Below, piece by piece: positions 2,746 to 54,534 of a DNA stretch of 64,000 nucleotides. Source of the DNA: Blastocatellales bacterium. GTDB taxonomy: Bacteria > Acidobacteriota > Blastocatellia > RBC074. The first letter of the stretch is position 1. Each line of letters begins with the position of its first letter. The stretch spans positions 29-64,028 of the forward strand of contig JBFWUF010000015.1 of NCBI GenBank assembly GCA_050247435.1, given 5' to 3'. Made by a program: the position numbers and the translations under genes. Below the pieces are notes generated by a model, which was not told where the DNA came from, did no database searches, and was given only the letters and a program-made list of their open reading frames with translations.

Positions 2746-2849
2746 CCTGGGAGCGCATCGCTTCCAGCGTGCTCTTGGCAAGATATTCATTGAAAGGAAA
2801 TAAGCCTCTCGCCAAGAGCACGCTGGAAGCGATGCGATGCGCTCCCAGG
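2746..2849. repeat. Palindromic MITE/REP-like element, copy A (CCTGGGAGCGCATCGCTTCCAGCGTGCTCTTGGCAAG ... CGCCAAGAGCACGCTGGAAGCGATGCGATGCGCTCCCAGG)
   Basis: ~37-bp near-perfect inverted arms with CCTGGG/CCCAGG termini. It shares 27 identical nt with copy C at 44199-44297. It sits between the stop of the 272-aa RAMP ORF and the cas4-cas1 RBS. Confidence 0.8.
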
Positions 2850-2854
2850 AATGT

Positions 2855-3673
2855 TTACACTGGCAAAAACAACCCAAGCCCGAAATGACAACCAAAGCCC
2901 AGAGCGAGCGGCCCGGCTATCGGCTCCGCAAACTCAAGCTCGAACCCGGCCAGCCCGAATCCTTCAGTTCCATTGAACCGCCGCGTGTGAAATTCGAGCC
3001 AGCGAACCAAAGGCCGCCCTCCCGCCGCATAACCTTCAACGCGTTTGATCGAAACCGGCTCCGGCAATCCGCGCACGAGCAATTCACGAACGAGCTGCGC
3101 TTCAGGCAGATCGCGCGGACGCGGCGGCTTGCCCCCGCCACGATTGGCAAAACGCGGCAGCGAGAACGGAGTCACCGACCGCCACCTCCGCGACCGCGCA
3201 AAGATCGGCGCATCGCCGAACTGCCCCGCCTCGCCAAGCCCGGTCAAAACTAGCCGGACATCAGGCCGATTGCCCTGCCTGAAGATCGTCCGCAAAGCGC
3301 CGATGGCCTCAAGGTCGTGACGATCAAACCCGCACGGCGCATAAAGCGTAACGTGATCCAACCGCCCATCGCCGTCTTCATCCACCGCCAGATAATGCGC
3401 GTGCAGATGCCCTTCGAGCGGCGCGCCGTCAACCGTCTTGCCGACGATGGCTTCGGAATGCGAAGTGTCCACCCGATTGCGAATCAACGCGCGCCGCACC
3501 TGCTCAGCGAACGGCATCGCGTCCTGCGCGAGCGGCAGCAGTGAGGAGTTCAGGACATAGCGCGCCGCAGCAATCGTTAATGAGGAACTCAGATGATGGG
3601 GAGGTGAACTACAACGCACATCAACACATCGAGAAATAACGTCAGCGGGTGAATCAAGAACTGTAATCGGCAT
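2855..3673 (-). CDS. RAMP-superfamily Cas protein (Cas6- or Cas5-like), an extra gene not expected in canonical type I-G. The likely true start is the ATG at 3517 (MPFAEQ...).
   Basis: The C-terminal glycine-rich loop GFGCHFGLGLF fits the GhGxxxxGhG RAMP signature, and an RWRSVTPFSL segment is present. The first ~50 codons are low-complexity and probably not translated. Confidence 0.45.
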   Translation of the reverse strand: MPITVLDSPADVISRCVDVRCSSPPHHLSSSLTIAAARYVLNSSLLPLAQDAMPFAEQVRRALIRNRVDTSHSEAIVGKTVDGAPLEGHLHAHYLAVDEDGDGRLDHVTLYAPCGFDRHDLEAIGALRTIFRQGNRPDVRLVLTGLGEAGQFGDAPIFARSRRWRSVTPFSLPRFANRGGGKPPRPRDLPEAQLVRELLVRGLPEPVSIKRVEGYAAGGRPLVRWLEFHTRRFNGTEGFGLAGFELEFAEPIAGPLALGFGCHFGLGLFLPV

Positions 3674-3700
3674 AGTCGAGTCCTTTATGTTGCGGCAACT

Positions 3701-5155
3701 TCAAATGAAGCTGGCAGGCACGTCTTCAAGGCAAGGGATCATCAAGCCAAAGCCGGAATGCCTGCCGCGTCCAATGACCAACACGCCTTCAACTGGCCGT
3801 TTGAAAATTACTTCGGCGTGATAACGTGGCGTCTGCGCGAGGTAGCTGTTCTTTTCGATTTGATAGTCCAACGGATGAATGGTCTTTTGCACAATCGGGC
3901 CAGTAAAAGCGGCGACAGATTCGATCTCGCCCTCAGGCACACCTGCTTGCATCAATGCGCGCGCAATCAACGCTTCAGCGCCGCGTCCACGCCGCATCAA
4001 GCCGGTCAGGATAATCGGCGTCACCGTCCGCCAGACGCGCTGCCCTCTGCCGATGAATAAGCGCAGAACCGAATCATTCGGCGCAGCCCGTTTCAGATAC
4101 CCGGCGAACTCCCCCTGATCTTGCAACTCGGCGCCGTTGATGCCGTCCGCCAAGCTTTCAAACAAACCCTGTGAAGCCGCGTCCTCGCAGCCGTAGCCAA
4201 TTAGCAGCACGCGGCGAATCCATCCATCAGCCTTGCCATCCTCTTTCAAGCTCGGAATGGGCACGCATGCAATGTGTGCCCCGTTGTGCTGCCTGTCAGC
4301 CTCGTGCCCGGCAATCAGACGCGACGCCAACTCCTCGCCGTAATGCTGAATGAATTTAGGATTCGCCCTCATCCATTCAATCATCGCGTGCCTGACCATT
4401 GCCGCCGGTTGACGCAATTCGCGCGGATCAAAGCGCTTCCGTTCATCCTCATCACGCCACAATTCAAATAACGCCATCGGCGCGTCAAAGCCGATCGCAC
4501 CTGACGGGCGGTAATGGGTGCGCCTCACAGGGATTGTCACGTTATCTTTGCTCTCACCCCTCAACCACGCTTGGTAGCGTTCCTGATAAGATGCCAGCGA
4601 ACCTTTTGTAGGTGAAACCCAATCGCCGTCTGATTGTTCCACCGGCAACATCGCGCCATTTGGCAAAATATCGTCACCCGACACCTCTCCGCTGGCGTAA
4701 ACCACGTCCTGATGCTGGCCGAGATGCGTGATGAGTTTAGCCATCGCGCAGATGACGGCGGCGTTTGCTTCGGCTTCCGGCGTGGCTTGGAAGTTCCAGC
4801 GGTAAGTCAGCGAATCGCCTTGTGGAAAAACTTTTGCCAGAAAAGATTTGGCCGTCCTGACGTGTTCCAGCCGATTCTCTTTCCGCCCGTCATCATTGTT
4901 CGGCACGTAGTTGGTGACGCCAGCGCCCGCTGTTCGTTCGGAGGGCGCTTCAATCACAGGCGGCTCCAGAGTTTCCAGCCATCGCAAGGCGCGGTCACGC
5001 TCGGCGGTATGCACCTTGTCGTAGACGCCGCAATGGCTGCCCGCGATCAATGCCTGGAACAGACGCGCGGGCGATGGCGGAAATTCCAATTCGTCCTCGC
5101 CCCTGCGCCCGTGATAGCGACGCGTGGCGAATGTCAGTTTGATTTGTAGCTGCAT
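3701..5155 (-). CDS. csb2: Csb2-like Cas5-Cas6 fusion (GSU0054 family), type I-G effector subunit / pre-crRNA endonuclease
   Basis: 484 aa. The N-terminus has LTFATRRYHG...EFPPSPARLFQAL, which resembles the Csb2 signature (GRYHA...EWPPSPWRLLRAL). The C-terminus has the G-rich loop GRGRHSGFGLMIP. Confidence 0.7.
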   Translation of the reverse strand: MQLQIKLTFATRRYHGRRGEDELEFPPSPARLFQALIAGSHCGVYDKVHTAERDRALRWLETLEPPVIEAPSERTAGAGVTNYVPNNDDGRKENRLEHVRTAKSFLAKVFPQGDSLTYRWNFQATPEAEANAAVICAMAKLITHLGQHQDVVYASGEVSGDDILPNGAMLPVEQSDGDWVSPTKGSLASYQERYQAWLRGESKDNVTIPVRRTHYRPSGAIGFDAPMALFELWRDEDERKRFDPRELRQPAAMVRHAMIEWMRANPKFIQHYGEELASRLIAGHEADRQHNGAHIACVPIPSLKEDGKADGWIRRVLLIGYGCEDAASQGLFESLADGINGAELQDQGEFAGYLKRAAPNDSVLRLFIGRGQRVWRTVTPIILTGLMRRGRGAEALIARALMQAGVPEGEIESVAAFTGPIVQKTIHPLDYQIEKNSYLAQTPRYHAEVIFKRPVEGVLVIGRGRHSGFGLMIPCLEDVPASFI

Positions 5156-5167
5156 AAGATCACCTCG

Positions 5168-6331
5168 CTATTTCTTCTTGGTTTTCTTCGCCTCTTCCAC
5201 GCCTTGTTTGGCCGCCTTAGCGTCAAACCCGACTTCCTGCGAATCGCCGACGCCAAAAGTCTCGGCAGCTTTTTTCGCGTAGCCAAACGCGGCTCTCACG
5301 TCGAATGCAAAAGGCTGGCTGGCGCGGTTGGTGTATACCAGTTGAGCCTGTTCGCTCTGACAACGCAGCAGACAGCCTTCGCGCAAGTCGTAGCTCGTTT
5401 GCGCGCGCGCCGCGACCAGCGCCAATCCCAGCAGGTAGCGCCTGAGCTTCAGCGTCTCGTCTTCGTCAATCTTGCCGTCTTTGATCACACCCAGCGCGCG
5501 CAACCGCACCAGGTTGATTTGCGTGCGCCTCACAATCTGACCGTAAACACGCACGCCGCCGTGTGTGTTGACTGCCGGCGCCGCGCGCAAGCCCAATTTG
5601 GACAAAGGGTCTTTGCCGTCGGCAGCTTTGCCGGAAGTTTCTTGAACCTCAGTCTCGCCATCAGGAAGTTCCTCCGCCAACCCCAAGGCGGTTGGGTCAA
5701 AGGTGGGGTTGTATTGGGACGAGCGTTTGACGATTTCGATGTTGGTGGCGCGGATGGTTGATGAGAGCATGCGCCCGAATTTGTACATCGTGGTATCTGG
5801 CCGCGAGTCCCAGAAACCGAGCAGCAAGGAAGTCGGCGCGAGTTTGGCAAGCGGCGCGGCGTTGGCTTGATCGCGCATGGCCTTGATCGCGGCAGTGACT
5901 GTTTCTCGCAGGGCGGAAAAACGTACCGCCCCGTCCGCAATGCGGTGCCCGATGTCCAACAGGTTCGCCTTCACTTCGTCATTGAGTCTCACTCTGATTT
6001 GCGGAACCAACGCCGCCAGCGGCTCTTCTTTGAACCTTGCTTCCATCCGGTTCGCTTGCGAACCAACGCTGTCAATAAGGCAATTGTTGGCTTCAAGTCT
6101 GGCCTGGGCGGCGGCCTGTGCTGAGAAGTTTTTATCCAGCACATCAATTTGATAGGGATGGGTGGCTCCCCTGCCTACCGCGAAGGTCGGCGGAAAGATC
6201 ACGGCATCACGTCCTTCCGACGGCTCAAGCACTTCTTCCAGCGTGATCGCGACCGGCAAGTCGGGTTCCGCAAGCCAGTCCACAGATTCGATAAAGGCGT
6301 CATACTGCTCAATGTTGATTTCCTGGGTCAT
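5168..6331 (-). CDS. cas7: Putative Cas7 backbone subunit (Csb1/GSU0053-like)
   Basis: 387-aa protein located between the Cas8u-like ORF and csb2, as in type I-G. Its size and position fit Cas7, but no diagnostic motif could be verified by eye. Confidence 0.55.
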   Translation of the reverse strand: MTQEINIEQYDAFIESVDWLAEPDLPVAITLEEVLEPSEGRDAVIFPPTFAVGRGATHPYQIDVLDKNFSAQAAAQARLEANNCLIDSVGSQANRMEARFKEEPLAALVPQIRVRLNDEVKANLLDIGHRIADGAVRFSALRETVTAAIKAMRDQANAAPLAKLAPTSLLLGFWDSRPDTTMYKFGRMLSSTIRATNIEIVKRSSQYNPTFDPTALGLAEELPDGETEVQETSGKAADGKDPLSKLGLRAAPAVNTHGGVRVYGQIVRRTQINLVRLRALGVIKDGKIDEDETLKLRRYLLGLALVAARAQTSYDLREGCLLRCQSEQAQLVYTNRASQPFAFDVRAAFGYAKKAAETFGVGDSQEVGFDAKAAKQGVEEAKKTKKK

Positions 6332-6545
6332 TGCTATCTCCTTCTTTGCCGCCGTAGCGGCGGTTGAATTTAGCCGTGGTTTTCAAACCACGGCGCCGAT
6401 GAGAAAGTTTGCCGTGTCGCGTCAGCGACACCTGAACTCAAGCGTCACTACGCGACGCCGCGGTTACGCGGCTGAATCCCAGGCGTTGAAACGCCTGGCT
6501 AAAGTCAGGTCGCCGCTACGCGGCTGCAACAAGCCGCGTTGATAC
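6332..6545 (-). other. Highly structured 214-nt intergenic region inside the cas operon with at least 6 stem-loops: CCGTGGTTT-GA-AAACCACGG, GTGTCGC-TGAC-GCGACAC, CCAGGCGTT-TC-AACGCCTGG, GCCGC-GTA-GCGGC, CCGCG-TAAC-CGCGG and GCCGC-TACG-GCGGC.
   Basis: The inverted repeats were read directly from the sequence. It lies between the stop of the 316-aa ORF and the cas7 start codon. Confidence 0.6.
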
Positions 6546-7496
6546 TTATTGCCGGCGGCCTTTGCCAGATTTAGGCTTCGGCCAAACAGCCGCCAGCGCC
6601 ATTTTGAAGTTGGAATACTTGTCTCGCTTGGCTCGGCCTGCGCGCAGCGGGACTAGCGTGTCTTGCCGAATGGCTGCGCCAGTTGCGGCCAATCGCGCCA
6701 GTCTGATGGGAAGCGGCATTTGCCAAAGCCCGTACAGAAAAGCGTCATCCTCAACCCAGCCACGAGCGGATGTGATGCCGCCGCCCTGCCGGGTGCGTTG
6801 CGGGAAAAAATACTGCGCGGCGATGCCCGCCAGCATTTCCGCGAACGGATAAGTCGCAATCGGCAGGTTCAAGTCGTTCGCCGAAAATCCAGTGTCCAAT
6901 GCGTTGCGTGAGGAGCGCGGATCAAACCCGAAGCGCCCCGTCATCCCAGCGGACAGCTTGAGCAGCGCCGAGATGCTCTCGACTCGATGCTGCTGTAACA
7001 GCCTCGCCGCTTCTCCGGTCATATCGCGGGTGATCTTTTCGGCGGTCTGCTGCCCGGCGTACATCTTCCAGGCGCTCTTCTCTTTGATCTTGCGCTGCGG
7101 CGTCAGCGTTTCATACCACCAATCCAGCCGCAGGGTGGCCGACTGGTCGTTGAGATAAAACGACGGACTGAGCAAAATGCCTTCGTTGCCTTCCTCAGCA
7201 GCGTTTGCATCGTCCGTTTCGCTAGGTGGTTCCTCCTCAGCCTCGCCATTCTGCTCTTCCGCCTCCTGCGTCTGATTGGTTGATGTCTGCCAGGCATTCC
7301 AATCCGTCAAGGTCTGCGTCAGGCAGCGCAACAGGGATGTCTCGTCAATTTGGCTTTCCAGCCAACAACGCGGTTGCACATCGAGTTCCCACCAACTGAC
7401 GGCATTCGGATCAAAGCGCGCGATGATTTCCAGCACGCCGCAACAGGCTAGGTATTCGACCGGGTTATGCGGGTTCACTTGAATGTCATATTTCAT
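6546..7496 (-). CDS. Short Cas8u2/Csx17-like (large-subunit-like) protein with an internal acidic low-complexity insert (EAEEQNGEAEEEPPSETDDANAAEEGNEG). It is only 316 aa, versus ~700 aa for canonical Cas8u2.
   Basis: It overlaps the cas3 stop by 4 bp (ATGA). The N-terminal VNPHNPVEYLACCGVLEIIARFDPNAVSWWE resembles the remembered Csx17 N-terminal motif (L.GC.P.P...YLKALGVLRL...DP.A..WW). The position is that of the large subunit. Confidence 0.4.
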   Translation of the reverse strand: MKYDIQVNPHNPVEYLACCGVLEIIARFDPNAVSWWELDVQPRCWLESQIDETSLLRCLTQTLTDWNAWQTSTNQTQEAEEQNGEAEEEPPSETDDANAAEEGNEGILLSPSFYLNDQSATLRLDWWYETLTPQRKIKEKSAWKMYAGQQTAEKITRDMTGEAARLLQQHRVESISALLKLSAGMTGRFGFDPRSSRNALDTGFSANDLNLPIATYPFAEMLAGIAAQYFFPQRTRQGGGITSARGWVEDDAFLYGLWQMPLPIRLARLAATGAAIRQDTLVPLRAGRAKRDKYSNFKMALAAVWPKPKSGKGRRQ

Positions 7497-10400
7497 TGTT
7501 CACCTCCGAATTCGCCTCGGCTGAAAGCGCGTGAGGCCAGGGCGTCAGCGGCTTTGAGCACCGCTTCCAGGTAAGCCAGTTGCCACCATCCGTACTGCCG
7601 TTGCAGCCGGTCGAAGCGCAACAGCGCCTCGTGCGCGATTTGCTGATTCAGCGGCTTGGGTTGTTTGCGATCAAACGCGCGTTCGGGGAAGTGCGGGCGC
7701 GCGTAGCCGTGGTGCGACGCAATAAGATGAAGAATCAAATCACGGTGCGGATGGCCTTCGAGCGAATCGTCTTCGAGCGATTCAACCAGGGAGCCGAATT
7801 CGTGGCGGTAGCCTTGATTGAAATTGTGATCGAACGAGTTGTTGTTCGATTTGGCGTAGAACTCGCCTGTGAAATTGCCGATAGCCTTTTGCCACCAGTC
7901 GCGCGCCTTGCCGAGATCGTGGCGCACGCCAGCGGCAGCCAACGCTTCAATCAAGTCATCTGGCAAACCGATCCGCCGCCCCAGGTCGCGGGCGAAAAGC
8001 TCGACATCTTCGTCGTGTTGTTTGACGGTACGAGGCGCCAGGTCGAGCGAGGCTTGATCGTCGGCCTCTTCGCTGAAAAATGCGTCGGGCGTGATGCGCT
8101 GGCGGAAGCAGGCGATGTAAGCACGTGGTTCCTCATCGGTGGTGAAGGCATTTTGCAAGTCAGAACGATTGACCAGCACGCCTTTGCCCTTCACGCTTTT
8201 CAACGCTTCTTGCCAAGTCGAAAAGATTGCCTCTGTCCCATCCGCCAGGTTGAGTTGCTTGATTGAGTAATCCGTCTCGGCGCGGCGAGTGATGAGATAG
8301 CGCGCCCATTCAGCGCTATTGACGACATCGAACGACCGCGTCCCTTTGGCGTCAGGATTCCCATCGTCATCCAGACCGCCGATGCCGGCGGGCAAGATCA
8401 CCGCCGCGAACGCAATCTGGGCAAACAGCCCCTTCCTGGTTTTGTCATCCGCGAAGGAAGCCAGCCTGAACGCCTCTGCTTCACCGCCAGCGTCAATCAG
8501 AACGCACAGCTTTTGCGGATGCTTTTTGGCAAGCTCGGTCAGCAACTTCTCGGCGCGGAAGGTCGCTACGGCGGCGCGTTCCTGCGGCTGCACGGGGATT
8601 GCCGTCACCAACTCGGCCAGTTCTTCCGGCTGATTCGTCACATCAAAGCAGTCCAGTTCAGCCCGCCAGACGAACGTCGTTTGCGCCTGCTCGTCGTCAA
8701 TCACACCGCGCAGCCAGTACTGCGCCAGCGGGCGCGCGAATTCTTTCTGCTTCAGTGAAGTCATTGCCCAATCGTCAAGCCGCGCCTGATCCAGCGGCGG
8801 GCGAACCGGTTCATCTGGTAATGCTCGCTGGTTGGCCGCCAGCAGACCGCGCAGAGCCAGCGGCGATGCTTTCACTTTTCCGTTTTCCTCTCTGGATTTC
8901 AGCGCCAGCCAGGTGAAATAAACCTTCGGGCGCTCTCGCTCAATTTCTTTTTGGCCGCGCTCTGCACCATTCTTTGCCAGCTTTTTGTGTTGATCGGATT
9001 TTGCCCTGATCTGCTTCTGCAAGGATTGTTTAGCTTCCCTATCAGACTTCAAGATTTCAGTCTGAGCTTGCAACTCGGCAATTTCCGCCGCGAAGTTGGC
9101 CAAGTGTTGTTTGTGCTCTTCGTCTTTTTGAAAATCGGAGGCGGCAGCCTGCAAACCCAATTCATCAATCACCACAGTAATCGTGGAATCGGTCAAGCCG
9201 AAGCGATTGATGCGCCCGATACGCTGGATCATGCTGTCCAGCGTGGACAGGTCGCAGAGACCGTGATCAGCATCCAGATTGACGCCGACCTCCGCACATG
9301 AAGTTGCAATCATGTAATGAGTCGGGCGGGGGGTAGCACGATCCCGTTGATTAGGTGAAAAACGCATGAACTTGAGAACTTTGATTAGTTCATCACGTTC
9401 AGCGCCGCTGGCAGAAGCCAGCATTTGCATGATTTCCAACTCAGTTTTCTGAAGATCCGAGGTCAATTTATCGCGCTCCCATCCACGCATCTCGCCGGTC
9501 ATTTTGAGGATGCGATTGTTTATCTCCGCTTGCGCCGCTGCCTTTGCTTTTTTGTCAGTGGCCTCCCTGCCAGCAAGGCTTTTCTCTTCCAGCGCGGCTT
9601 TCAATTTGTCGAAGATGAGGTTCACCAACTCGACCGTTTGCGCAAAGATGATGACGGATTTCGGCGGGGTATTCTCATCGCCGACTTCGTGCTGAATCGC
9701 GCGATTCACCAAACGTTCCGCTAATGCCTCTCTGATTTCGGGTGGTGTGGCTTTCTTTCCTGCTTTCGCTTTAGCCCGCTGGTCAAAAGGCAGCCATTCG
9801 ATGTACTTGCGCGCGTTGAGGCGGCGTTCGGCAGTTTCGTTTCGGAGTTCTTGCTCTTCGTTCAGCGCCAGCGTGTTGCTCGCTCCGCTGAGCGTGGCCG
9901 ATAACGACATCACATGGAATGGCCGCAACGATTGTCCCTGTTGAACAAAGTTTCGGATGTCAAGTTGAGTAGCGACAAAGCAGGGGGACAGGTGCGCCTC
10001 ATCAATCACGATCAGGCTGTCTTGCCCCAACAAGCCGGCTTGCAGGCTGCGATGGTTGATGCCGACTTTCCCATAGCCGGTGAACAACATTCGGCTGCCG
10101 ATCATATCTACCGTGCCGATGATGATGGCCGGACGCGATGGGTCAAGACACCATTCCCGATTGTCAGCTTTTTGCCCGCGCAAAGTCGAAAGCGCAATCA
10201 GAGACTCCTGCCCTTTCATTGATGCTGCGCGAAAGGTTTGCGCCAGTAGATGAAGCGGATTCGATTCATCTGAAAGAGCGACAGTAAGTTTCTTCAGCAG
10301 GCTTTCAGCTTCCGCCGTCGCCTGATCAACAATGACGCGACGGTCTACGACATACACCAGACGCAATGGAATCTTGCGCGTGCGCTCTTTGAGCATGTGC

Positions 10401-10567: not shown

Positions 10568-10663
10568 AGCTATCCTCTTCTAATCCGTTAATGGGTAGGT
10601 AATTTATGCTACTAAAGCTACTTGCGTATTTTGGATAATTGCTGTACTACGTTGATCGTGGCT

Positions 10664-10679
10664 GTGGCTCCATTGAAGC
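10664..10679 (+). repeat. Solitary CRISPR-repeat fragment (GTGGCTCCATTGAAGC, the 3' 16 nt of the minus-strand repeat, preceded by a duplicated CGTGGCT) in the cas3 promoter region. It is inverted relative to the array.
   Basis: Exact 16-nt match to the repeat, ~100 bp upstream of the cas3 start codon. No adjacent full repeat. Confidence 0.7.
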
Positions 10680-10742
10680 TGAGACTTACAGGTCTAGTCT
10701 CTTGCGGTTTTCAAACTTTCCCAGCCACATTAAATAACTGAC

Positions 10743-11006
10743 TTAATTAGGGCTTATGTCGTCCAACCATATGTACATTTCGTTGTTTGGTCCTGGACGA
10801 ATTGGCACATTCAACGCAATCGCATCTGTTTCGGAAACGTCGTTCCCAATGATTAAAAATTCTGGCTGCATCTCGTCTTCGGTTTCACCGTCTCCACCTT
10901 TTTGCCTAGACTTGTAATTCTCATAAGTTTCCATTGCGGAGGGGAAGATAATCACCGTTGCCCAGCCTGTCAAGCTGGAAAATGCGTGACTTGCACCATT
11001 TGGCAT
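10743..11006 (-). CDS. Hypothetical small protein (87 aa) in a low-GC island between the WYL regulator and cas3; possibly a gene fragment
   Basis: ORF only. The surrounding ~680 bp is markedly AT-richer than the rest of the window. No recognisable motif. Confidence 0.3.
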   Translation of the reverse strand: MPNGASHAFSSLTGWATVIIFPSAMETYENYKSRQKGGDGETEDEMQPEFLIIGNDVSETDAIALNVPIRPGPNNEMYIWLDDISPN

Positions 11007-14381: not shown

Positions 14382-15554
<1,173 letters not shown>

Positions 15555-23503: not shown

Positions 23504-23620
<117 letters not shown>

Positions 23621-26524: not shown

Positions 26525-26735
26525 ATTCAGCCCTTTTGATAAGGCGCGTTTGGTGTTTCGTAACCAATGGCATTATCAGGGCGACATCAGGGATTTTTGA
26601 AGCGGGATTGATTCTTTTGCCCGGAAGAAGTCGCGGAACAGGAGTTGCGGCAAACCGGTTTAAGCGGTCTATGCTGGTTGACGGGTGGCGAACCGGGATT
26701 CTGAAGAGCGACCGCGACGAAGTAAGAAGGAACAT

Positions 26736-28088
26736 ATGACCAATCGTGTCGCCTTATCAAAAGCAGCGGTTGAGAAGATGCAAATTTTCTTTATCGCGCT
26801 CATTTTCGCGCTGGCGGCAGGCTCAAGCGCCTGCGTTTCGCCAGAGTCGGAAACCATCGGCGCGTCTGTCGCTCCGGCGCCGGCGCATTCTTCCATCCCG
26901 GCGAGTGACCCGAACTACCTGCCCATCACGTTGCCTGTCCTTGACGCGCTCCTCGCGGATGAAGCTTTCCGGACGGAGTTGAAGTACCAGATTGGCTTGA
27001 GCGACGAACAGATCAACCAGCTCAGCGCGGTCGCGAGCGAAGAGAACTCAGTGCCCCGCGAGACGGCTGACTGGCGCGGCGCCGCCGCCTTGACGCGCTC
27101 CCGGAAACGAATCGCAGAGGCCATCGGCGAGGAGAAGGCGGCGCGGCTTCACACGCTCGCGCGCGAGTGGTGGAGCGACGCCGCTGTGGCCACAGCCAGC
27201 ATTTTACCCACCGACATCCCCGCTGACACGCGCATCGTCATCAATACGCCGGCGTACCGGATGGACATTTTTGAGAATGGCAAACTGGTGAAATCTTATC
27301 GGATCGGCATCGGCTACCCGGAGTTCCCGCTGCCGACGGGGATGCGAATGGTGGATGCGATCATCTTCAATCCGACGTGGACGCCGCCAAATGAGCCGTG
27401 GGTCAAATCATCCGGAAGCAAAATCAAAGCCGGCCAGATAATCGCAGCGGGCAGCAAACTCAACCCCCTTGGGCTGGTCAAAATCCCGATCGGCTTGCCG
27501 TCGCTGATTCACGGCGGCAAGTCGCCAGCCCAACTCGGCGGCTTTGCCTCGCACGGTTGCGTGGGTTTAACCAACGCGCAGGTCATCAGCCTCTCCAAGC
27601 GGCTCGCGCAACTGGGCGGCGTTGAAATCACCGACGATCAGATCGCGAAATACAGGCGGAGCCGCACGGAGACAAGAAACATCGTGCTCCAGCAGGCGAT
27701 CCCGGTCGAATTTCGTTACGAAACAATCGTCGTCGAGGACGGCAAGCTGCGCATCTATCGCGACGTTTACGAACGCGGAACCAACACTGAAGAGAATCTG
27801 CGAAACGCGCTCGGCGCTTACGGCATGACGCTCGAAAGCCTGAGCGGGAGCGAACGCTCGCGGGTGTTTGACGCTCTCAACCAGATGGGACGCGATGCTA
27901 ACGGAAAAGAAGTTCCCGACACTGGCCTGTCGCCAGGCGCCGCGCCGTCAAAGCGCCAAAACGCTTCTGGGAAAAAGACGCGCCGGGTCATAGGCGAAAA
28001 AATGATAGTGATCGAGATTCCGGCGCTCGCGGGCAAAGGCTACGCCGCGCCGGTCGAGCTTGACTCTGGGGAAAAAGAAACGCTTTAA
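26736..28088 (+). CDS. L,D-transpeptidase (YkuD domain) lipoprotein/secreted
   Basis: HGCVGLTNAQ catalytic Cys motif. Signal peptide with AGSSAC. Confidence 0.75.
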   Translation: MTNRVALSKAAVEKMQIFFIALIFALAAGSSACVSPESETIGASVAPAPAHSSIPASDPNYLPITLPVLDALLADEAFRTELKYQIGLSDEQINQLSAVASEENSVPRETADWRGAAALTRSRKRIAEAIGEEKAARLHTLAREWWSDAAVATASILPTDIPADTRIVINTPAYRMDIFENGKLVKSYRIGIGYPEFPLPTGMRMVDAIIFNPTWTPPNEPWVKSSGSKIKAGQIIAAGSKLNPLGLVKIPIGLPSLIHGGKSPAQLGGFASHGCVGLTNAQVISLSKRLAQLGGVEITDDQIAKYRRSRTETRNIVLQQAIPVEFRYETIVVEDGKLRIYRDVYERGTNTEENLRNALGAYGMTLESLSGSERSRVFDALNQMGRDANGKEVPDTGLSPGAAPSKRQNASGKKTRRVIGEKMIVIEIPALAGKGYAAPVELDSGEKETL

Positions 28089-28158: not shown

Positions 28159-28246
28159 CCTGGGCGCCCATCGCTTCCAGCATGCAGACTTCGATCCGAG
28201 GGCCTACCAGCGAAAGCGGGCACGCTGGAAGCGATGCGAACCCAGG
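28159..28246. repeat. Palindromic MITE/REP-like element, copy B (CCTGGGCGCCCATCGCTTCCAGCATGC ... GCACGCTGGAAGCGATGCGAACCCAGG)
   Basis: Same termini and core (CATCGCTTCCAGC.TGC) as copies A and C. It lies immediately upstream of the PQQ-dehydrogenase start. Confidence 0.75.
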
Positions 28247-28263: not shown

Positions 28264-30258
28264 ATGAAAACCAGACGAAAATTGATCGCCTTGTTCGTCC
28301 TGTTGACGGTCGTCGCCGGTCAAGGGGCGCATCAATCGAACGCGCAGAAGAACTCTCAGAAGAAACTGTCGCAATCGCAATCTTCAACTGCCGACTACGG
28401 CTGGCCCGCATACGGACGCGACTCGGGCGGCTCACGCTATTCTCCGCTCGCGCAGATCAATCGCGAAAACGTCAAGAACCTGAAGGTCGCGTGGACGCGC
28501 CGCACCGGCGCGGCGGATGTCAAAGCCGCTTCCGCCAGGAGCGCGGCTTTTGAAGCGACGCCGATTCTGGTTGATGGCTTGCTCTATCTCACTACGCCTT
28601 ACAACCGCGTCATCACGCTCGATCCGGCGACGGGAACTGAAAAATGGACTTTCGATCCGCAAGTAAAACTAGAGCAGCGTTATTCCGAAATGACTTCGCG
28701 TGGCGTGTCGGCGTGGCCCGCGCCAAATGACAAGCGCAAGCTCGCACGCCGTATTTTTCTCGGCACGCTCGATGCGCGGCTGATCGCGCTGGACGCCGCA
28801 ACTGGCAAGCCTTGCGCTGATTTCGGAGAAAACGGACAGGTTGACCTGACGCGCGATGTTCGATTTGTTGAGCGCGGGAACTACCAGGTGACTTCTCCGC
28901 CAGCGGTGATCGGCGATGCGATCATCGTCGGCTCGGCGCTCGGCGACAACCGTGGCGTCGAATTGGAGCGAGGCGTCGTGCGAGCGTTCGACGCGCGCAC
29001 CGGCAAGCTGTTATGGAGTTTTGATCCGATTCCGAAAAACGCAAACGATCCCGCGCGCAAGACCTGGGCTGGCGATAGCGCGGAACGAACCGGCGCGGCC
29101 AACGCGTGGTCAATCATCTCGGTTGATGAAAAGCTCGGCCTGGTCTTCGTGCCCACCAGCAGTCCCAGCCCCGATTTTTACGGCGGCGAACGCAAGGGCG
29201 ACAACCGCTACGCCAATTCCGTCGTCGCGCTGCGAGCCGCGACCGGCCAGGTCGTCTGGCATTTCCAGGTCGTGCATCACGACGTGTGGGATTACGACGT
29301 GGCGTCGCAGCCGATGCTGATCAATTTGAAACGCAGCGGACGTAATGTTCCGGCGGTCGCCGTCGGCACAAAAATGGGAATGATCTTCGTGCTGGATCGC
29401 CGCAACGGTAAGCCAATCTTCCCTGTCGAAGAGCGCCCGGTGCCGCAAACCACAGTGCCTGGCGAACAAACTTCGGCGACGCAGCCTTTCCCGAAACTTC
29501 CCCGCCCGCTCGTGCCGCACAGACTCAACCCCGAAGACGCGTGGGGATTGACCGACAAAGACCGTGAAGCCTGCCGCGAGAAGATCGCCGCGTCACGGTC
29601 GGAAGGTATCTACACGCCGCCGAGCCTCGAAGGCACGGTCGCGATTCCGGGCAATGTCGGCGGGATGAATTGGAGCGGGATGTCATTCGACCCGGTTCGC
29701 CAATTGCTGATCGCGAACACCAACAACCTGCCGTTTCTGGTCAAACTCATCCCGCGCGACGAATACAACCGGATGCGCGAGACCGGCGCGATGAACCGAG
29801 TCAAAGGTGAATTCGGGCGGCAGACGGGCACGCCGTACGCGATGTACCGCGAGCCGTTGATGTCGCCGAGCGGAACGCCCTGCGTCGCTCCACCCTGGGG
29901 CAAACTAACAGCCGTGGATTTAATCACGGGCGAGATTCGCTGGGAGTCGCCGCTGGGCCGCATCCCGCAGCTCGCTCTCTTTCCGAAAACAGCCGAATTC
30001 GGTTCGATCAATCTTGGCGGTTCGATGGTCACCGCTGGCGGGTTGGTCTTCATCGCGGCTGGAATGGACGACAAGCTGCGCGCGTTCGATGTCGAAACTG
30101 GAAAAGTGATTTGGGAAGGTCAGCTTCCGGCCAGCGCGCAGGCCGCGCCGATGACCTACTCGGTCAACGGCAAACAGTTCGTGGTGATTTCAGCCGGAGG
30201 GCACGGCAAGCTGGGCACGAAGACGGGCGACCACGTGGTGGCTTTCACGCTGCCTTGA
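28264..30258 (+). CDS. PQQ-dependent dehydrogenase (8-bladed beta-propeller; glucose/quinate-type), secreted
   Basis: Signal peptide MKTRRKLIALFVLLTVVAGQG and repeated W-containing PQQ repeats. Confidence 0.75.
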   Translation: MKTRRKLIALFVLLTVVAGQGAHQSNAQKNSQKKLSQSQSSTADYGWPAYGRDSGGSRYSPLAQINRENVKNLKVAWTRRTGAADVKAASARSAAFEATPILVDGLLYLTTPYNRVITLDPATGTEKWTFDPQVKLEQRYSEMTSRGVSAWPAPNDKRKLARRIFLGTLDARLIALDAATGKPCADFGENGQVDLTRDVRFVERGNYQVTSPPAVIGDAIIVGSALGDNRGVELERGVVRAFDARTGKLLWSFDPIPKNANDPARKTWAGDSAERTGAANAWSIISVDEKLGLVFVPTSSPSPDFYGGERKGDNRYANSVVALRAATGQVVWHFQVVHHDVWDYDVASQPMLINLKRSGRNVPAVAVGTKMGMIFVLDRRNGKPIFPVEERPVPQTTVPGEQTSATQPFPKLPRPLVPHRLNPEDAWGLTDKDREACREKIAASRSEGIYTPPSLEGTVAIPGNVGGMNWSGMSFDPVRQLLIANTNNLPFLVKLIPRDEYNRMRETGAMNRVKGEFGRQTGTPYAMYREPLMSPSGTPCVAPPWGKLTAVDLITGEIRWESPLGRIPQLALFPKTAEFGSINLGGSMVTAGGLVFIAAGMDDKLRAFDVETGKVIWEGQLPASAQAAPMTYSVNGKQFVVISAGGHGKLGTKTGDHVVAFTLP

Positions 30259-30261
30259 AAG

Positions 30262-30346
30262 TACGGAGCAAACGTAAAAGACGGAACGAACGAAAAAGCT
30301 CCCCTGTGGGATTTTCCGTCTGTTCCGTCTTTTCCGTTTGTTCCGT
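30262..30346. terminator. Long imperfect hairpin (~32-bp stem: GTACGGAGCAAACGTAAAAGACGGAACGAACG / CGTCTGTTCCGTCTTTTCCGTTTGTTCCGTAC) between convergent genes; putative bidirectional terminator
   Basis: Inverted repeat read directly, 28/32 matches. Confidence 0.6.
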
Positions 30347-30364
30347 ACTCTCTTCCGCCTCGCG

Positions 30365-42550: not shown

Positions 42551-42651
42551 CCTGGGGGCGCACGCGGCCCGCGTGCGGGCTTGTTGAAAGATACCGCACG
42601 ATAAAAATAGCGACTGAGTAAGCCCGCACGCGGGCCGCGTGCGCCCCCAGG
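42551..42651. repeat. Palindromic element, copy E: perfect 32-bp inverted repeat CCTGGGGGCGCACGCGGCCCGCGTGCGGGCTT ... AAGCCCGCACGCGGGCCGCGTGCGCCCCCAGG around a 37-bp loop. Each arm is itself palindromic.
   Basis: Read directly. It starts 4 nt after the stop of the PAP2-like gene and ends 21 nt before the DsrE-like start. Confidence 0.85.
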
Positions 42652-44198: not shown

Positions 44199-44297
44199 CC
44201 TGGGTACGCATCGTTTCCAGCGTGCCATTGGCGAATAGCCTATTTCCTCTCGATCAGCTTCTCGCCAAGAGCACGCTGGAAGCGATGTGTACCCAGG
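44199..44297. repeat. Palindromic MITE/REP-like element, copy C (CCTGGGTACGCATCGTTTCCAGCGTGCC ... CTCGCCAAGAGCACGCTGGAAGCGATGTGTACCCAGG)
   Basis: It shares a 27-nt identical segment with copy A. It is intergenic between the YVTN gene stop and the PAP2 gene start. Confidence 0.8.
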
Positions 44298-44309
44298 AGC
44301 AATTGTGGA

Positions 44310-45455
44310 TCAGGGCACGTATGCCAGCCCAAACGGGTTGAAGCCGACTGTGATCTCTTTGTGGTAAACCGGCAGGTCGCCCTTCAGCTTGTAGACAGTC
44401 ACCTTGCTGGCGGTCGCGCCGGAGTGGGTCAGGTAAAGCTTGCGGCCGCCGCGATCATTCGGGAAAAAGATTCCGCGATCAGGCGAGAGCGCGATGTTGT
44501 GCGGGCCTGGGAACGGTGTGTCGAGCGGCGAGCCGATGACGGCGTTTGAATTGGTGTCAATCGTCCACAACCCGTCATTCCCGCCGCCGGGGAGATTAGT
44601 GGTGTAAAACGTCTCGCCGTCATAGGCCATCCCGGCGCCGTGCGCTCCCGGAATCAAGATGGACGTCACAGGCGCGAGCGTTCCTCGATCCAGCACCGCG
44701 ACCACATTGCTGTTCTGGCAAGGCACGTAGAGCAGGTTGTTCCGCCGCGTCGCGGTAAGATGCGGGTCTTTGCCGACCGCCACGCGCCCGACTTCCTGGA
44801 ATGTTTGCGTGCTGTATTTGACTACGAAGTCGGCAGGCCCCGTCACGCCGATCAGCGAAACGTAAGCGAATTCGCCGGCGACCGGATCAAGGATCACGTC
44901 GTGCGGTTTGCCGCCCGCAGAGGCCAGATCAGCCGGCGTCGGAACCGTCGCCAGAACCTGCAGCGTGAGCGGATCAATCACCGTGCAGGTCTTGTCAATG
45001 TCGTTGTTGACCCAGAGCTGGCGGTCGAACGGATCAGCCCACATGTGCCAGATACCCGCGCCCGCCGGGACTGTCCCTTCGACGACGAAGGTTCGCGGAT
45101 TGAAGACCGCCACGCGATTGTTCGCGCGGTCGCCGACGAAGACGCGCCCGCGCGAGTAAACGACGTACATCGGTTCCGGGGTTTTAGTGTCGGCAGGCAG
45201 GGCATAAGTTCCGACGACCCGGTCTGAAGCGGCGTCAATGACGGAGATTGTGCCCGAAGCGCGATTGGCGATAACCATCTTGCCTTTGCGCCGCCCAAGC
45301 CCCGGAACCCCTCGCGCATCTTCGTCCTCGCGCGTCAGTTGGGGGTCTTGTTGACCTTGCGGCTCACGCGCAGATGACGTGTTCTGGTTTCCGCTGATCG
45401 CCGCGATGATGACCAGCGCCAGACAGTGCGTGATCAGGAAAAGTCGGCGTTTCAT
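44310..45455 (-). CDS. Secreted YVTN-family beta-propeller repeat protein
   Basis: Signal peptide and repeated blade motifs (YVxxxxxxxVxVxD). Confidence 0.65.
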   Translation of the reverse strand: MKRRLFLITHCLALVIIAAISGNQNTSSAREPQGQQDPQLTREDEDARGVPGLGRRKGKMVIANRASGTISVIDAASDRVVGTYALPADTKTPEPMYVVYSRGRVFVGDRANNRVAVFNPRTFVVEGTVPAGAGIWHMWADPFDRQLWVNNDIDKTCTVIDPLTLQVLATVPTPADLASAGGKPHDVILDPVAGEFAYVSLIGVTGPADFVVKYSTQTFQEVGRVAVGKDPHLTATRRNNLLYVPCQNSNVVAVLDRGTLAPVTSILIPGAHGAGMAYDGETFYTTNLPGGGNDGLWTIDTNSNAVIGSPLDTPFPGPHNIALSPDRGIFFPNDRGGRKLYLTHSGATASKVTVYKLKGDLPVYHKEITVGFNPFGLAYVP

Positions 45456-46200: not shown

Positions 46201-46209
46201 TCATCAGCT

Positions 46210-48822: not shown

Positions 48823-49026
48823 TCCTCCGTCTCTCCGTCTCCCCGCTTCGACTAAGCGGCGCGTTTGAGCTATAGTATCGGCCTACTGCTCTCATAGTCA
48901 GATCAGGATGACATCAGCTTCAATATCAATTCGACTTAACGAGAATGATTGCGAAGGCGCGCATTACGCTGCTGAAGTGTGGCCGAACGCAACGACAAAA
49001 TACGCAACGAAGGATTAAGAAAGACA

Positions 49027-51729
<2,703 letters not shown>

Positions 51730-51747
51730 ACTCGCGTTCATTTAAAG

Positions 51748-52648
51748 TTGACATCATTCCCGGAGTTGTCTTGTGCGCCGGTCTTTCGCCGTCAGTGGCC
51801 AAGCCTCTACGAAGCGGCGCAAGATGGCGCGCTCAACCGCCAGGAATTGCTCAAACTCGAGGTCGAGAACTTGCCCACAGCTTCTCGGCAATTGTTGGTC
51901 GGTGACCACACGGCCTGGTCGCGCCCGCAAGCGCGCACGCTGCGTGATCGCAGCTTCGAGCATCAGCCGACTCCGATCCGCGGGCAAAAGCCGATCACCA
52001 TCGGGCACGGTTACAGCACACTCGGCGTTGTCCCGGACAAAGAAGGTAGTTGGTTTCTGCCTCTGCTGCACGAGCGGATTAAGAGCGAGACGAAGCCTTC
52101 AGCCAAGATGGCTGAGCAACTCAAAGAGGTCTGTCCCTTATTGCCTGAGCGACCACTGGCGCTGTTTGACGCGGAGTACGGTAGCGGCGCGTTCGTCAAG
52201 GAGACTGACGGCATCAATTGCGATCTACTCTTCCGCCTGCGCCCCAATCGCAAGCTGCGTCTGGCGCCAGGGCCTTACAAAGGGCGAGGCCGCCATCCGA
52301 TTCACCAACCAAACGCCTGAACAGAGCGAGCTATGGAGCACATTGATGGTGATCGCGAGTTGGCAACTGTGGCTGGCTCGCTCCCACGCGGAGGACAAGC
52401 CTCGCCCGTGGCAAAAGCCGCAACCGCCCGAGAAGATGACGCCTGGGCGCGTTCACCAAGCGATGGGGGGAGTTTTGGCGAGGATTGGTACACCGGCTAG
52501 CGATCCCAAAGCTCGTGGAAATTCGCCAGGCTGGCCAGTCGGGCGGATTCGCGCCAAGCGCACACGCTACGACGTGGTCAGAAAGCGTCCCAAGGAGACC
52601 AACGAGGTGAAAAAAGAACCCCCGAAAAACAAGCAGGCATCGCTCTGA
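51748..52648 (+). pseudogene. DDE transposase remnant, N-terminally truncated and frameshifted near 52295 (two overlapping frames: 51748-52320 and 51773-52648); IS4/IS701-like superfamily, family uncertain
   Basis: Frame 1 has LLVGDHTAW...GHGYSTLGVV...LFDAEYG (DDE-like). The continuation in frame 2 has ...ELWSTLMVIASWQLWLAR... Neither frame alone is full length. Confidence 0.55.
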
Positions 52649-52903
52649 CGCTAATTTGGTGATTGTCAATGAACTTTCAACTCACTCGGACATCGCCGAG
52701 GATGAGGTTGTGTAGTCTAATCTCGAAACGAAGCCATACTCAAAATAGCCGGGATGCCGGGCATTGGGCATTTGCGCGAAGACCTCGCTGACGAACCTTG
52801 CGCTTCTGGCCGGTTCATCGTTATCTGATCATCTACCGATCCGAGATTGAGCCTTTGGAGATTGCTCGGATCTTGAGCAGCAGACGCGACATCCGCGCAT
52901 TAC

Positions 52904-54184
52904 TCACTCGAATGCGGTAAGCCCGCCGATGTCCCGCCTGAACTGCATTCCATCGAACCGAATCTCACCAACCGATTTATAAACCCGCGTCGTCGCTTCT
53001 TCCAGCGTCGCTGCGCGCGCGGTCACGCCAAGCACGCGTCCGCCGGCGGTTTCCACTTCGCCGTTCGCGTTAAGCTTTGTTCCGGCGTGGAAGACGACAA
53101 CGCTTTCAACCTGTTCCGCTTCACCAATTCCCGTGATCGTTTTGCCGGTCGAGTAACTTCCCGGATAGCCCGCTGAAGCCATCACCACGCACGTTGTTGT
53201 TTCGCCGCTCCAGCGCGGCTTCACACCGGACAATCGCCCTTGCGCCACGGCCAGAGCTATCTCGGCGAAATCGCTGTCCAGGCGGCGCAGAATGGCCTGC
53301 GTCTCTGGGTCGCCGAAGCGCACGTTGTATTCGAGAGCCTTCGGGCCATCGTCGGTGAGCATCAGGCCGCAATACAACACGCCGCGGAACGGGAAGTCTT
53401 CGGCGCGCGCGGCTTCCAGCGTCGGCTCGACGACTTCGCGGAAGATCCGCCGTTCGAGTTCGGCGTCGAGCAATCCCGGCGTCGAGAAAGCGCCCATCCC
53501 GCCGGTGTTCGGCCCGAGATCGCCGTCGAACGCGCGTTTGTGATCCTGAGCGACGGGCATCGGCGCGTAATCCTTCCCGTCGCTGAAGACGAGGTATGAC
53601 AGTTCGCGCCCGGCCAGACACTCTTCGATGACTAGCCTCGCGCCCGCATCGCCCAATTTGCGGTCAACCAGCAAATCCTCAATCGCCCGCCGCGCCTGTG
53701 TTTCGTCTTCAGCGATGATCACGCCTTTGCCGGCGGCCAGCCCCTCGGCTTTCACCACTACGGGAAATTGGAAAGAGCCGTCGGTGACGGCTTTCAACGC
53801 GTCTTCGGCGTTGTCGGCGATCCGGTAGCGCGCGGTCGGGATGTTGTGGCGGGCCATGAACTCTTTGGCGAATACTTTGCTGCCTTCGAGCCTCGCCGCT
53901 GCCCGCGAGGGGCCGAAGACCACAACGCCGCGTTCAACGAGCGCGTCGGCCAGACCATCAACCAGTGGCTGTTCGGGGCCGACGACTACCAGATCAATCT
54001 TTTCGCGCGCGGCGAATTCGGCCATTGAATTGACGTCGCTGGCGTTCACAGCGGCGGCTGTCGTTTGTTTCAGGATGCCCGCGTTGGTAGTCGCGGAGTA
54101 AATTTGTTTGACGAGCGGGCTGCGGGCCAACGACCACACCAGCGCGTGCTCACGCCCGCCCGAACCGATCACGAAAACTTTCAT
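52904..54184 (-). CDS. purD: Phosphoribosylamine--glycine ligase
   Basis: [23 protein letters not shown]...; ATP-grasp. Confidence 0.9.
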
Positions 54185-54275
54185 AATCTCCTTCAAACAT
54201 GGGAAATACGGATTTGTTGTGATGCGCGAAGAAGAGCGCAACTTTACCCTTTGGCGTTAAAACTTGAAAGCCGCG

Positions 54276-54350
54276 CCTGGGAGCGCACGCATCCTTGCGT
54301 GCTGGTTTTCTGCCGTAAGCCCAGCACGCAAGGATGCGTGCGCTCCCAGG
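54276..54350. repeat. Palindromic element, copy D: perfect 30-bp inverted repeat CCTGGGAGCGCACGCATCCTTGCGTGCTGG around a 15-bp loop, followed by a partial direct duplicate of the terminus (CGCTTGCTCCCAGG, to 54364)
   Basis: Read directly. It lies upstream of purD, between purD and rpsU. Confidence 0.85.
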
Positions 54351-54534
54351 CGCTTGCTCCCAGGCGCTTGACAGTTTGCAGGGCCGAAAGCTAAGGTTGC
54401 GGTTCGCTTCACCAGCGCCGTCGCCCGCATGGCGTCCCAACAATCTCGAATGGCTAATTCGGTCAACGAGAATGCCCGGCGAACGCGCGGTGAAACTTCC
54501 AATCGCAGACATTTGAAAGGCAGGTGAGAAGTAA

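Follow-up and report, generated by a model that had tools for sequence, protein, structure and literature searches.

Five palindromes in a Blastocatellales contig are very probably REPINs of a family associated with a RAYT transposase

A 64-kb stretch of contig JBFWUF010000015.1 from a Blastocatellales bacterium (assembly GCA_050247435.1) carries five short palindromes, here called A to E, with the termini CCTGGG...CCCAGG, and one of them stands between the genes of a type I-G CRISPR-Cas operon. What kind of element are they, what spreads them, and does the copy among the cas genes serve its host? The whole 64-kb stretch is called the window, coordinates are window positions unless another stretch is named, and L-numbers denote stretches or contigs fetched from other genomes. 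In our assessment the five elements are very probably REPINs, each composed of two inverted repetitive extragenic palindromes (REPs) joined by a spacer, of a family that is spread through Blastocatellia and other Acidobacteriota and is associated with a REP-associated tyrosine transposase (RAYT).

A sequence-only reading of the window had listed five copies, and inverted-repeat detection recovers each of them in place; all are intergenic and all form long hairpins, with single-stranded DNA folds of -26.9 to -53.1 kcal/mol and z-scores of -4.8 to -13.2 relative to shuffles. Element A (2746-2849; 104 nt; -48.4 kcal/mol, z -12.5) has arms that are 97% complementary over 30 nt and, in an outer segment of 20 nt, 95% complementary. 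The left arm of B (28159-28246; 88 nt; -26.9 kcal/mol, z -4.8) has diverged, and its arms match at 86% over 28 nt; those of C (44199-44297; 99 nt; -36.1 kcal/mol, z -10.5) match at 86% over 44 nt. D (54276-54350; 75 nt; -44.4 kcal/mol, z -13.2) and E (42551-42651; 101 nt; -53.1 kcal/mol, z -12.0) had been described as perfect inverted repeats of 30 and 32 bp. Both are indeed perfect, and the 32 nt for E stands, but the arms of D extend to 33 nt if the GCG/CGC flanks are counted.

The arms themselves show what the palindromes are built from. A REP unit of this family begins with an unpaired 5' foot, CCTGGG-NN-C, in which NN is most often TA, AG or CG, followed by a 7-bp stem, GCA(T)CGC-N / N'-GCGTGC, and a loop of 3-4 nt that is usually TCC. 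Every arm in the window keeps GCA(T)CGC...GCGTGC and forms its own hairpin, the two inverted units are joined by a spacer of 15-50 nt, and each of the five elements is predicted to fold as a whole into one long hairpin. Because each arm is itself a small REP hairpin, the elements are inverted REP doublets, which fits the published definition of a REPIN as two inverted REPs with a spacer (Bertels & Rainey 2011, PMC3116915). Three hairpin subtypes are present: A, B and C carry a T bulge, D has the REP hairpin GCACGCA-TCCT-TGCGTGC, and E has GCACGCG-GCC-CGCGTGC. This diversity could mean that more than one RAYT is involved, that there is cross-mobilisation, or that some copies are relics.

This anatomy amends the earlier description in several details. 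The ends had been given as CCTGGG(N2-3)CGCA; CCTGGG ends do occur far above chance, but the spacer that follows is always 2 nt, the left end of B is CCCA, and C ends on the right in TGTG where TGCG would be expected. The identical stretch common to A and C is 28 nt long rather than 27. Conserved ends with a variable interior had also been proposed, and the foot and the base of the stem are indeed conserved while the top pair and the loop vary; the interior is not, however, freely variable, and a conserved foot and stem base with a covarying top pair and loop is the anatomy of a REP hairpin.

Chance does not account for these counts. The pattern CCTGGGN{2,4}CNCA has 12 matches in the window versus 1.1 expected, 10 of which are element ends, and CCTGGGNNCGCAN{8,9}GCGTGC has seven versus 0.00 expected. 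A covariance model of the REP half-unit, built from 38 distinct sequences with 7 base pairs and run over the window with filters off, returns exactly 10 units, or five pairs, at 19.6-42.6 bits. The left unit of A (CCTGGGAGCGCATCGCTTCCAGCGTGC; 2746-2772, plus strand) scores 42.3 bits (E 1.5e-6) and the right unit (2818-2849, minus strand), in which a 5-nt CATCG duplication leads to a bulge in the fold, 28.2 bits. The units of B score 19.6 and 39.7 bits, those of C 32.2 and 32.6 bits, and those of E and D 41.9 and 42.6 bits each, respectively. No further REP unit was found in the window, and as the next-best model match reaches only 11.8 bits (E=1.1), the list is complete for the window: five REPINs (10 units) in 64 kb versus 0 expected.

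At the right end of D, a 14-nt unit, GCTCCCAGGCGCTT, occurs in 2.1 tandem copies (54342-54370, plus strand), covering that end and 5 nt of flank and giving a weak model match at 54356-54364; TTGACA follows. This duplication is a partial extra REPIN terminus and could have been left by a second element that was lost or by imprecise processing. Element A can be compared with a second assembly, L001 (GCA_050181015.1, JBFXDP010000021.1), where 100 N at 2860-2959 replace its central 77 nt and the intergenic gap holding it measures 151 nt versus 128 nt in the window; because the centre is N there, only the two ends of A are cross-checked. Either the hairpin has left a scaffold gap at this point or the stretch has been masked, and assemblers evidently struggle with this hairpin. 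The interior of A as read in the window is supported only indirectly, by its resemblance to C and to copies found in other genomes.

Does the family extend beyond the window? The paired pattern CCTGGGNNCGCAN{6,14}GCGTGCN{20,50}GCACGC, scanned over 185,579 species-representative genomes, matches at least 112 stretches. By record titles and our own classification, at least 78 stretches come from about 28 assemblies under the labels Acidobacteriota, Blastocatellia, Pyrinomonadaceae and Chloracidobacterium, plus four metagenome-assembled genomes (MAGs) labelled Heliobacteriaceae or Heliomicrobium, which show the same behaviour; a single MAG, JBBIWA01, holds at least 20 stretches with the paired motif. 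Another 34 of the stretches listed belong to unrelated phyla (Streptomyces, Rhodoferax and others). We treat these as chance, since they are mostly one unit on one strand and about 19 or more chance matches are expected by our own estimate, made for uniform composition in the 596-Gb collection. The sequence-only reading had named copies confined to this window and of unrelated sequence as the observation that would speak against it, and the family is neither confined nor unrelated. A link to phages was considered and rejected: among viral contigs the single-unit pattern returns 54 stretches, each of them a one-strand match, which is the chance level.

With a relaxed regular expression, the 78 stretches contain 154 units. 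Head-out doublets number 43 (74-169 nt, median 89), a share that is biased upward because the scan required the paired motif; 29 units lie in tandem arrays and 39 are apparent singlets, 23 of which face a degenerate unit in inverted orientation. Conservation between genomes extends to entire REPINs with their spacers, and element A of the window resembles elements in L065 and L174 over its full length. Contigs from the Heliobacteriaceae- or Heliomicrobium-labelled MAGs (L113, L116, L163, L167 and L173), which bear Firmicutes names, hold REPINs of the CCTGGG family as well as a RAYT with 82% identity to that of Blastocatellia; mislabelling or mis-binning of contigs would explain this, and so would horizontal transfer. 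In MAG JASJCB01 (L131), 18 REP units form tandem arrays on opposite strands at 1705-2611 and 6413-7168, bracketing an open reading frame (ORF) of 1150 aa that we presume, by eye, to resemble a phage tail or host-specificity protein, and the arrays may be a REP-cluster hotspot at the edge of a prophage.

The hairpin of the REP unit is selected, as covariation in its stem evidences. The six outer stem pairs are uninformative in this respect because the search patterns fix them. The seventh, top pair is left unfixed by the patterns and is Watson-Crick in 142 of 147 units (TA 61, AT 44, GC 31, CG 6). When the units are reduced to 30 distinct hairpins, 25 have a Watson-Crick top pair, and each of the four pair types occurs; shuffles give 7.7 +/- 2.3, and none of 10,000 reaches 25. 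Sequence upstream of CCTGGG is unconserved, and CCTGGG is therefore the boundary of the element. Doublets in JBBIWA01 (L072, L076, L082, L086, L117, L126, L130 and L152) are heterodimers in which one arm is GCACGCATCCTTGCGTGC and the other GCACGCTTGCGAGCGTGC or another variant, with the arms unpaired at their tips. As the arms carry different variants, the conserved object in that genome is the small hairpin of each arm and not the long hairpin of the doublet. These heterodimers recall the alternating Y and Z REP types of the bacterial interspersed mosaic elements (BIMEs) of E. coli.

Such identity between loci bears on whether the copies might be ordinary gene-specific intrinsic terminators or attenuators that happen to look alike, a reading to which we give next to no credence. 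The elements are GC-rich hairpins downstream of genes, as terminators would be, four consecutive T come after A and B, and the inner REP hairpin of D together with the TGGTTTTCTG that follows it is flagged as terminator-like. The identity among copies and across genomes is, however, far above chance. The elements show symmetry on the two strands; a T-run after the full hairpin is missing from C, D and E; and D, rather than following a gene, is placed in a region of divergent promoters. A sequence scan found no promoter-like or canonical terminator-like signal at element A, and promoter and terminator scans at A and D gave nothing convincing. No element reaches the gathering score of any family in Rfam 15, in which the only matches are sub-threshold ones to eukaryotic microRNA-precursor models, that is, to generic long hairpins, and the E-value threshold assigns no RNA family either. 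Elements of this family also adjoin RAYT genes, as described below.

If the elements are REPINs, which enzyme could mobilise them? When the ORFs of the fetched stretches were filtered for HUH and Y...NP motifs, the sole match was a protein in L084. It scores 87.2 bits with the NCBIfam equivalog model NF047646 REP_Tyr_transpos (cut-off 80) and 18.2 bits with the IS200 model (cut-off 55), and it matches Pfam Y1_Tnp at 1.7e-8. Its sole credible relative in the PDB is the E. coli TnpA-REP structure 4ER8 (E 5.7e-7), and several of its 4518 homologues at E<=1e-20 are named RayT (JGI) or Acidobacteriota/Blastocatellia transposase (NCBI). Eight further members were fetched on contigs, all from other assemblies (look-ups including P0105, P0077, P0070, P0046, P0001, P0004 and P0114). 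The family is about 205 aa long, and PNHVH and YIE[ND]NPV are invariant in 8 members.

These genes stand beside the same REPs. REP units lie within a few hundred nucleotides of the RAYT gene at nine of the nine loci in related genomes, on both sides at eight and upstream only in L170, and nearly all of the 46 unit-model matches in 46.5 kb are beside the gene. The earlier proposal of a dispersed family tied to a RAYT-like transposase is thereby supported. The REP CCTGGGTACGCATCGCTTCCAGCGTGC, of the subtype seen in A, B and C, flanks the RAYT clade of L084, L173, L174 and L175, and other RAYT variants carry other hairpin variants; the hairpin variant changes with the RAYT clade and so matches the expected cognate pairing. 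Two RAYTs that are 71% identical and come from different assemblies have the same neighbours, an epimerase gene upstream and a PNPOx gene downstream, which fits vertical inheritance, as judged from this shared gene order. At the right end of the window, an alcohol dehydrogenase gene, not a RAYT gene, follows an epimerase gene. In L172, the RAYT gene overlaps at its 3' end with a REP unit (3112-3145), from which a C-terminal tail, RRLGTHTSGVLV, is translated; the other members lack this tail.

The adjacency of a Y1/HUH enzyme also bears on the label of MITE (miniature inverted-repeat transposable element) given in the sequence-only reading. Classical MITEs are deletion derivatives of insertion sequences (ISs) of the DDE type, moved via terminal inverted repeats with target-site duplication, and short, non-coding, dispersed intergenic elements with inverted-repeat ends have the outward appearance of MITEs. 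In the strict sense the label is not supported, and we think such an origin highly improbable. No consistent flanking direct repeat or target-site duplication occurs among the five copies, only A having AAT on both sides; the inverted repeat spans nearly all of the element, with a separate covarying hairpin in each arm, which is foreign to MITEs. The only gene consistently adjoining the same termini encodes a Y1/HUH RAYT and not a DDE transposase, and tandem direct arrays, such as the 18 units of L131, are typical of REP clusters.

Are the elements mobile at orthologous sites? A metagenome search with Cas4-Cas1 yielded eight close relatives (75-94% identity) of the junction that holds A. In all eight, the alignment covers the upstream gene's end and, on the other side, the start of cas4-cas1 with its ribosome-binding site, but not the spacer. 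The junction is empty in L182 and L183, which have a plain 37-nt gap, and A is therefore an insertion relative to the empty state, probably an old one. In L185 and L248 the junction holds some 85 nt of element. Its right arm (GGAAGCGATGCGC-NN-CC(C)GG) and left core (ATCGCTTC) show clear homology to A, but its head has decayed. Other repeat families occupy the junction in L184, L180 and L228. In L181, an IS200-like Y1 transposase gene (1450-1896; 148 aa; Pfam Y1_Tnp 83.9 bits) lies exactly at the site of A and is followed by the repeat GATCCCGGTGGTTCCACCACCGG...GTCC(C/T)TCCGGGAC; this repeat recurs in L180, together with three tandem units, each about 73 nt long (1741-2000). Hairpin-rich inserts are thus found at the junction of interference and adaptation genes in six of eight relatives as well as in the window, and the cas4-cas1 junction is a favoured landing place for several repeat families.

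The L181 gene raises the possibility that the elements are palindrome-associated sequences moved by a classical multi-copy IS200/IS605 TnpA rather than by a domesticated single-copy RAYT. The two kinds of enzyme belong to the same superfamily and share the logic of a hairpin plus a foot, and an IS200-like gene at the orthologous cas junction would suit such an origin. However, the repeat that flanks the L181 gene is another one, GATCCCGGTGG...GTCCCTCCGGGAC, and not the CCTGGG unit, and the proteins that do stand beside CCTGGG units exceed the RAYT equivalog cut-off, fall well below that of the IS200 model, and carry the Y...NP signature of class 2 RAYTs instead of Y...Q. We consider this alternative very unlikely. 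As in IS200/IS605, a HUH/Y1 enzyme would read a subterminal hairpin and a short guide on single-stranded DNA with no target-site duplication; unlike in IS200/IS605, the gene here appears to be single, has neighbours that are conserved between genomes, scores as a RAYT, and is vastly outnumbered by the repeats.

Elements C and E flank the same gene, which encodes a PAP2/haloperoxidase-like protein. A metagenome protein search returned no relatives of this gene, which were obtained instead by protein search and contig look-ups. In relatives with 87% identity, the gene order is the same and unrelated palindromes occupy the C and E sites, while a more distant relative has gaps of 44 and 21 nt. At the site orthologous to that of E, the palindrome in L176 and L177 starts with AGCCACG.

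How does this family compare to REPs described elsewhere? As in the REPIN-RAYT systems of Pseudomonas fluorescens SBW25 and other Proteobacteria (PMC3116915), inverted REPs with a spacer form a hairpin of 70-110 nt that is dispersed between genes, a cognate RAYT, apparently single here, is flanked by the same REPs, and singlets, doublets and tandem clusters coexist. Unlike in SBW25, the host belongs to the Acidobacteriota (Blastocatellales), the REP sequence is unrelated, and the foot is CCTGGG-NN-C rather than a tetranucleotide of the GTAG type. The RAYT motifs, NHVH and YIENNP, also differ from those of groups 2 and 3, which accompany the classical abundant REPINs. Compared to the REPs and BIMEs of E. 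coli, the RAYT is homologous to 4ER8 and REPs likewise stand between genes of operons. There is, however, no GTAG guide, and the stems are shorter (7 bp) and fairly regular, with a single-T bulge in the subtype of A, B and C. The Blastocatellia RAYT also has an extra N-terminal region of about 90 aa, with an RGYFPHFDG motif, that does not align with E. coli TnpA-REP.

At the level of motifs, not of phylogeny, these RAYTs resemble TnpA-Y1 subclass 2.4, or group 4 of Bertels et al. Subclass 2.4 has the signature NH[IFV]H ... YIxNNP, a length of about 194 aa and a distribution over "various phyla", and it includes "double-foot" REPs that possibly derive from an inverted dimer (Quentin et al. 2018, PMC6006769). 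The proteins described here have PNHVH ... YIENNP and about 205 aa and are assigned by motif only. A REP overlapping the RAYT 3' end, as in L172, is a further point of resemblance to subclass 2.4 and group 4. Unlike in subclass 2.4, the W motif is WE, WH or WD rather than WQ, and the published feet are GT[AG]G. Most described REPs are united by GTAG or CGTC tags (Di Nocera et al. 2013, PMC3733652), and the short palindrome, the unpaired conserved tag at one end and the frequent dimers are common to those REPs and ours. For the Acidobacteria, the same survey reports terminal inverted repeat (TIR)-associated tyrosine transposases (TIRYTs), not REP/RAYT pairs of this type. The foot CCTGGG lies outside the GTAG and CGTC tags, and what we describe is a known kind of repeat in a new lineage rather than a new kind of element. 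Within the literature that could be searched, no paper links REPs with Blastocatellia.

Several observations weigh against a RAYT-associated REPIN family. CCTGGG fits neither tag consensus of PMC3733652, and the family consequently lacks the tag that defines the GTAG/CGTC super-families. RAYT group 4 is weakly associated with abundant repeats, with about 14 occurrences of flanking repeats (Bertels et al. 2017, PMC5581495). No RAYT gene was found within the 64-kb window; the REPs of the A, B and C subtype at RAYT ends are known from related genomes and not from the window's own, and a cognate RAYT in this organism's genome is assumed. About 2 kb of extra flank at each end of the window (a 6.2-kb Logan contig, and L001 at the left) contains no further CCTGGG units, and the upward bias in the share of doublets belongs here as well. 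Finally, no clean empty site with alignable flanks was obtained: in the closest relatives (87-94% protein identity) the spacer has diverged or is occupied by something else. Where exactly the elements inserted, and that no target duplication arose, is consequently read from the flanks of the five copies.

Nevertheless, the anatomy, the hairpin covariation, the membership in a family, the adjacency to RAYT genes in related genomes and the presence or absence of elements at orthologous sites are observed, and because they fit the published REPIN definition we take the elements to be non-autonomous and copied by a RAYT. By analogy to E. coli TnpA-REP and IS200/IS605, the RAYT, a HUH/Y1 tyrosine transposase, would recognise the foot and hairpin on single-stranded DNA; it would then cleave and rejoin, copying or moving REPINs into permissive intergenic gaps with no target-site duplication, and selection would keep them only where the stop codon and the ribosome-binding site are left unbroken. 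We infer, on the strength of the same analogy, that a RAYT mobilises these REPINs through single-stranded DNA and may be currently active in this genome.

The positions of the copies are relevant both to this mechanism and to a possible function. A, B, C and E lie between co-directional genes and D alone between divergent ones. Copy A stands exactly between the type I-G interference genes and cas4-cas1-cas2, as the sequence-only reading had placed it. It lies between a Csb2-C-terminal-like ORF (2855-3673, minus strand) and cas4-cas1 (1014-2726, minus strand), beginning 5 nt past the upstream stop codon with the next start codon 19 nt beyond its end. B lies between a YkuD-domain gene (26685-28088, plus strand) and a PQQ-dehydrogenase gene, beginning 70 nt past the stop codon and ending 17 nt before the ATG at 28264, which has a GGAGGG ribosome-binding site. 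E, between the PAP2 gene (stop codon 42655-42657, minus strand) and a DsrE-like gene (start 42529), begins 3 nt past the stop codon and ends 21 nt ahead of the start codon. C, between a lactonase/YNCE-like gene (44310-45455, minus strand) and the PAP2 gene (start 44181), begins 12 nt past the stop codon and ends 17 nt ahead of the start codon; E and C thus flank the PAP2 gene within a run of a lactonase-like, the PAP2 and two DsrE-like genes. D occupies the region from which purD (minus strand) and rpsU (54535-54732, plus strand) diverge.

Four of five copies are accordingly inside apparent operons, 17-21 nt before the next start and clear of the ribosome-binding site, and the tight placement recurs in other genomes, where the distance from element to start is 17-23 nt in 12 of 22 cases. 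This regularity, together with the very stable hairpins and the repeated occurrence of a hairpin-rich insert at the cas junction, could be explained if the elements were now host-serving RNA or DNA modules whose mobility is past, acting as stabilisers of mRNA 3' ends, attenuators, RNase III sites or sites for nucleoid proteins or gyrase, with A tuning cas4-cas1-cas2 relative to the interference genes. REPs in E. coli reportedly stabilise upstream mRNA and affect translation when near a stop codon. Yet A has neither a U-tract nor a promoter-like signal, the cas junction of relatives holds inserts from unrelated families and, in two of them, nothing but a 37-nt spacer, so that it looks permissive rather than like the seat of a required module. 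Purifying selection on random insertions in short spacers would give the same placement, and the simplest account of it is that insertions survive only in the few free bases of such spacers. We regard the host-serving explanation as unlikely, and it is in any case compatible with the elements being REPINs copied by a RAYT. Where the 28-44-bp hairpins are transcribed in operons, they could stabilise upstream mRNA, attenuate read-through or serve as RNase III sites, as REPs do in E. coli. The suggestion that copy A could uncouple expression of the adaptation genes is right as to where the copy stands, and an effect on expression would be conjectural.

A more specific possibility concerns the gap between the type I-G interference genes and cas4-cas1-cas2. 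Unrelated hairpin-repeat families, some of them linked to Y1 transposases, occupy this gap, which might be a recurrently re-occupied landing site at which a strong hairpin is kept as an insulator or attenuator and REPIN A has been exapted. We consider this quite unlikely; if true, REPIN A would be a regulatory part of the CRISPR-Cas locus, separating adaptation from effector expression, and not a passenger. The repeated occupation of this junction is in itself a small lead on operon architecture.

To our knowledge, nearly all work on REPIN-RAYT systems has concerned Proteobacteria. A coherent and widespread REPIN family in the Blastocatellia, which are a major lineage of soil bacteria, extends the range over which such long-lived, lineage-persistent repeats are known, and it offers a concrete REP/RAYT pair for biochemistry on the reading of foot and hairpin; nothing changes in the known working of such elements. 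Since these hairpins break assemblies and seed spurious ORFs, annotators of Acidobacteriota MAGs should mask them.

The type I-G operon around A (minus strand) encodes, in order, Cas3g, a Cas8g2-like protein, Cas7g/Csb1, Csb2, a 272-aa Csb2-C-terminal-like protein and, beyond element A, a Cas4-Cas1 fusion and Cas2, after which a CRISPR array lies at 82-410. The 272-aa ORF (2855-3673, minus strand), which stands beside a full-length Csb2, matches only the C-terminal half of that family (TIGR02165 positions 236-492, 97 bits), and the Cas8g2-like protein (6546-7496, minus strand) scores 77 bits, below the family cut-off of 125. The 215 nt that separate csb1 from the Cas8g2-like gene of this operon contain the Rfam Acido-Lenti-1 motif in two inverted copies, at 6347-6393 (minus strand) and 6479-6525 (plus strand), with 31.8 and 37.7 bits relative to a gathering score of 37. 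This pair looks like another doublet-type hairpin repeat rather than a stand-alone small RNA gene.

Other hairpins and repeats are present elsewhere in the window. A CACGAA-rich hairpin at 23504-23616 has 34-nt arms at 97% complementarity and begins TTTTAGCCACG...CGTGGCTAAAA; another hairpin rich in CACGAA occurs some 2 kb beyond the right end of the window (L263, ~5930-6020). The L176/L177 palindrome mentioned above likewise starts with AGCCACG, and the CACGAA-rich hairpins may be a further dispersed family. Between the PQQ-dehydrogenase gene and a minus-strand ORF of 1210 aa, a hairpin at 30257-30352 with 41-nt arms at 85% is made of 9/18-nt tandem units (AAAGTACGGAACAAACGAA / TTCCGTCTG) and has no relation to the CCTGGG family. 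Positions 59943-60040 are taken up by a pair of neighbouring 7-nt tandem arrays, GATTGCG x7.7 and CATTCCG x4.7, and in an independent Logan assembly of the same sample the contig breaks exactly at these arrays.

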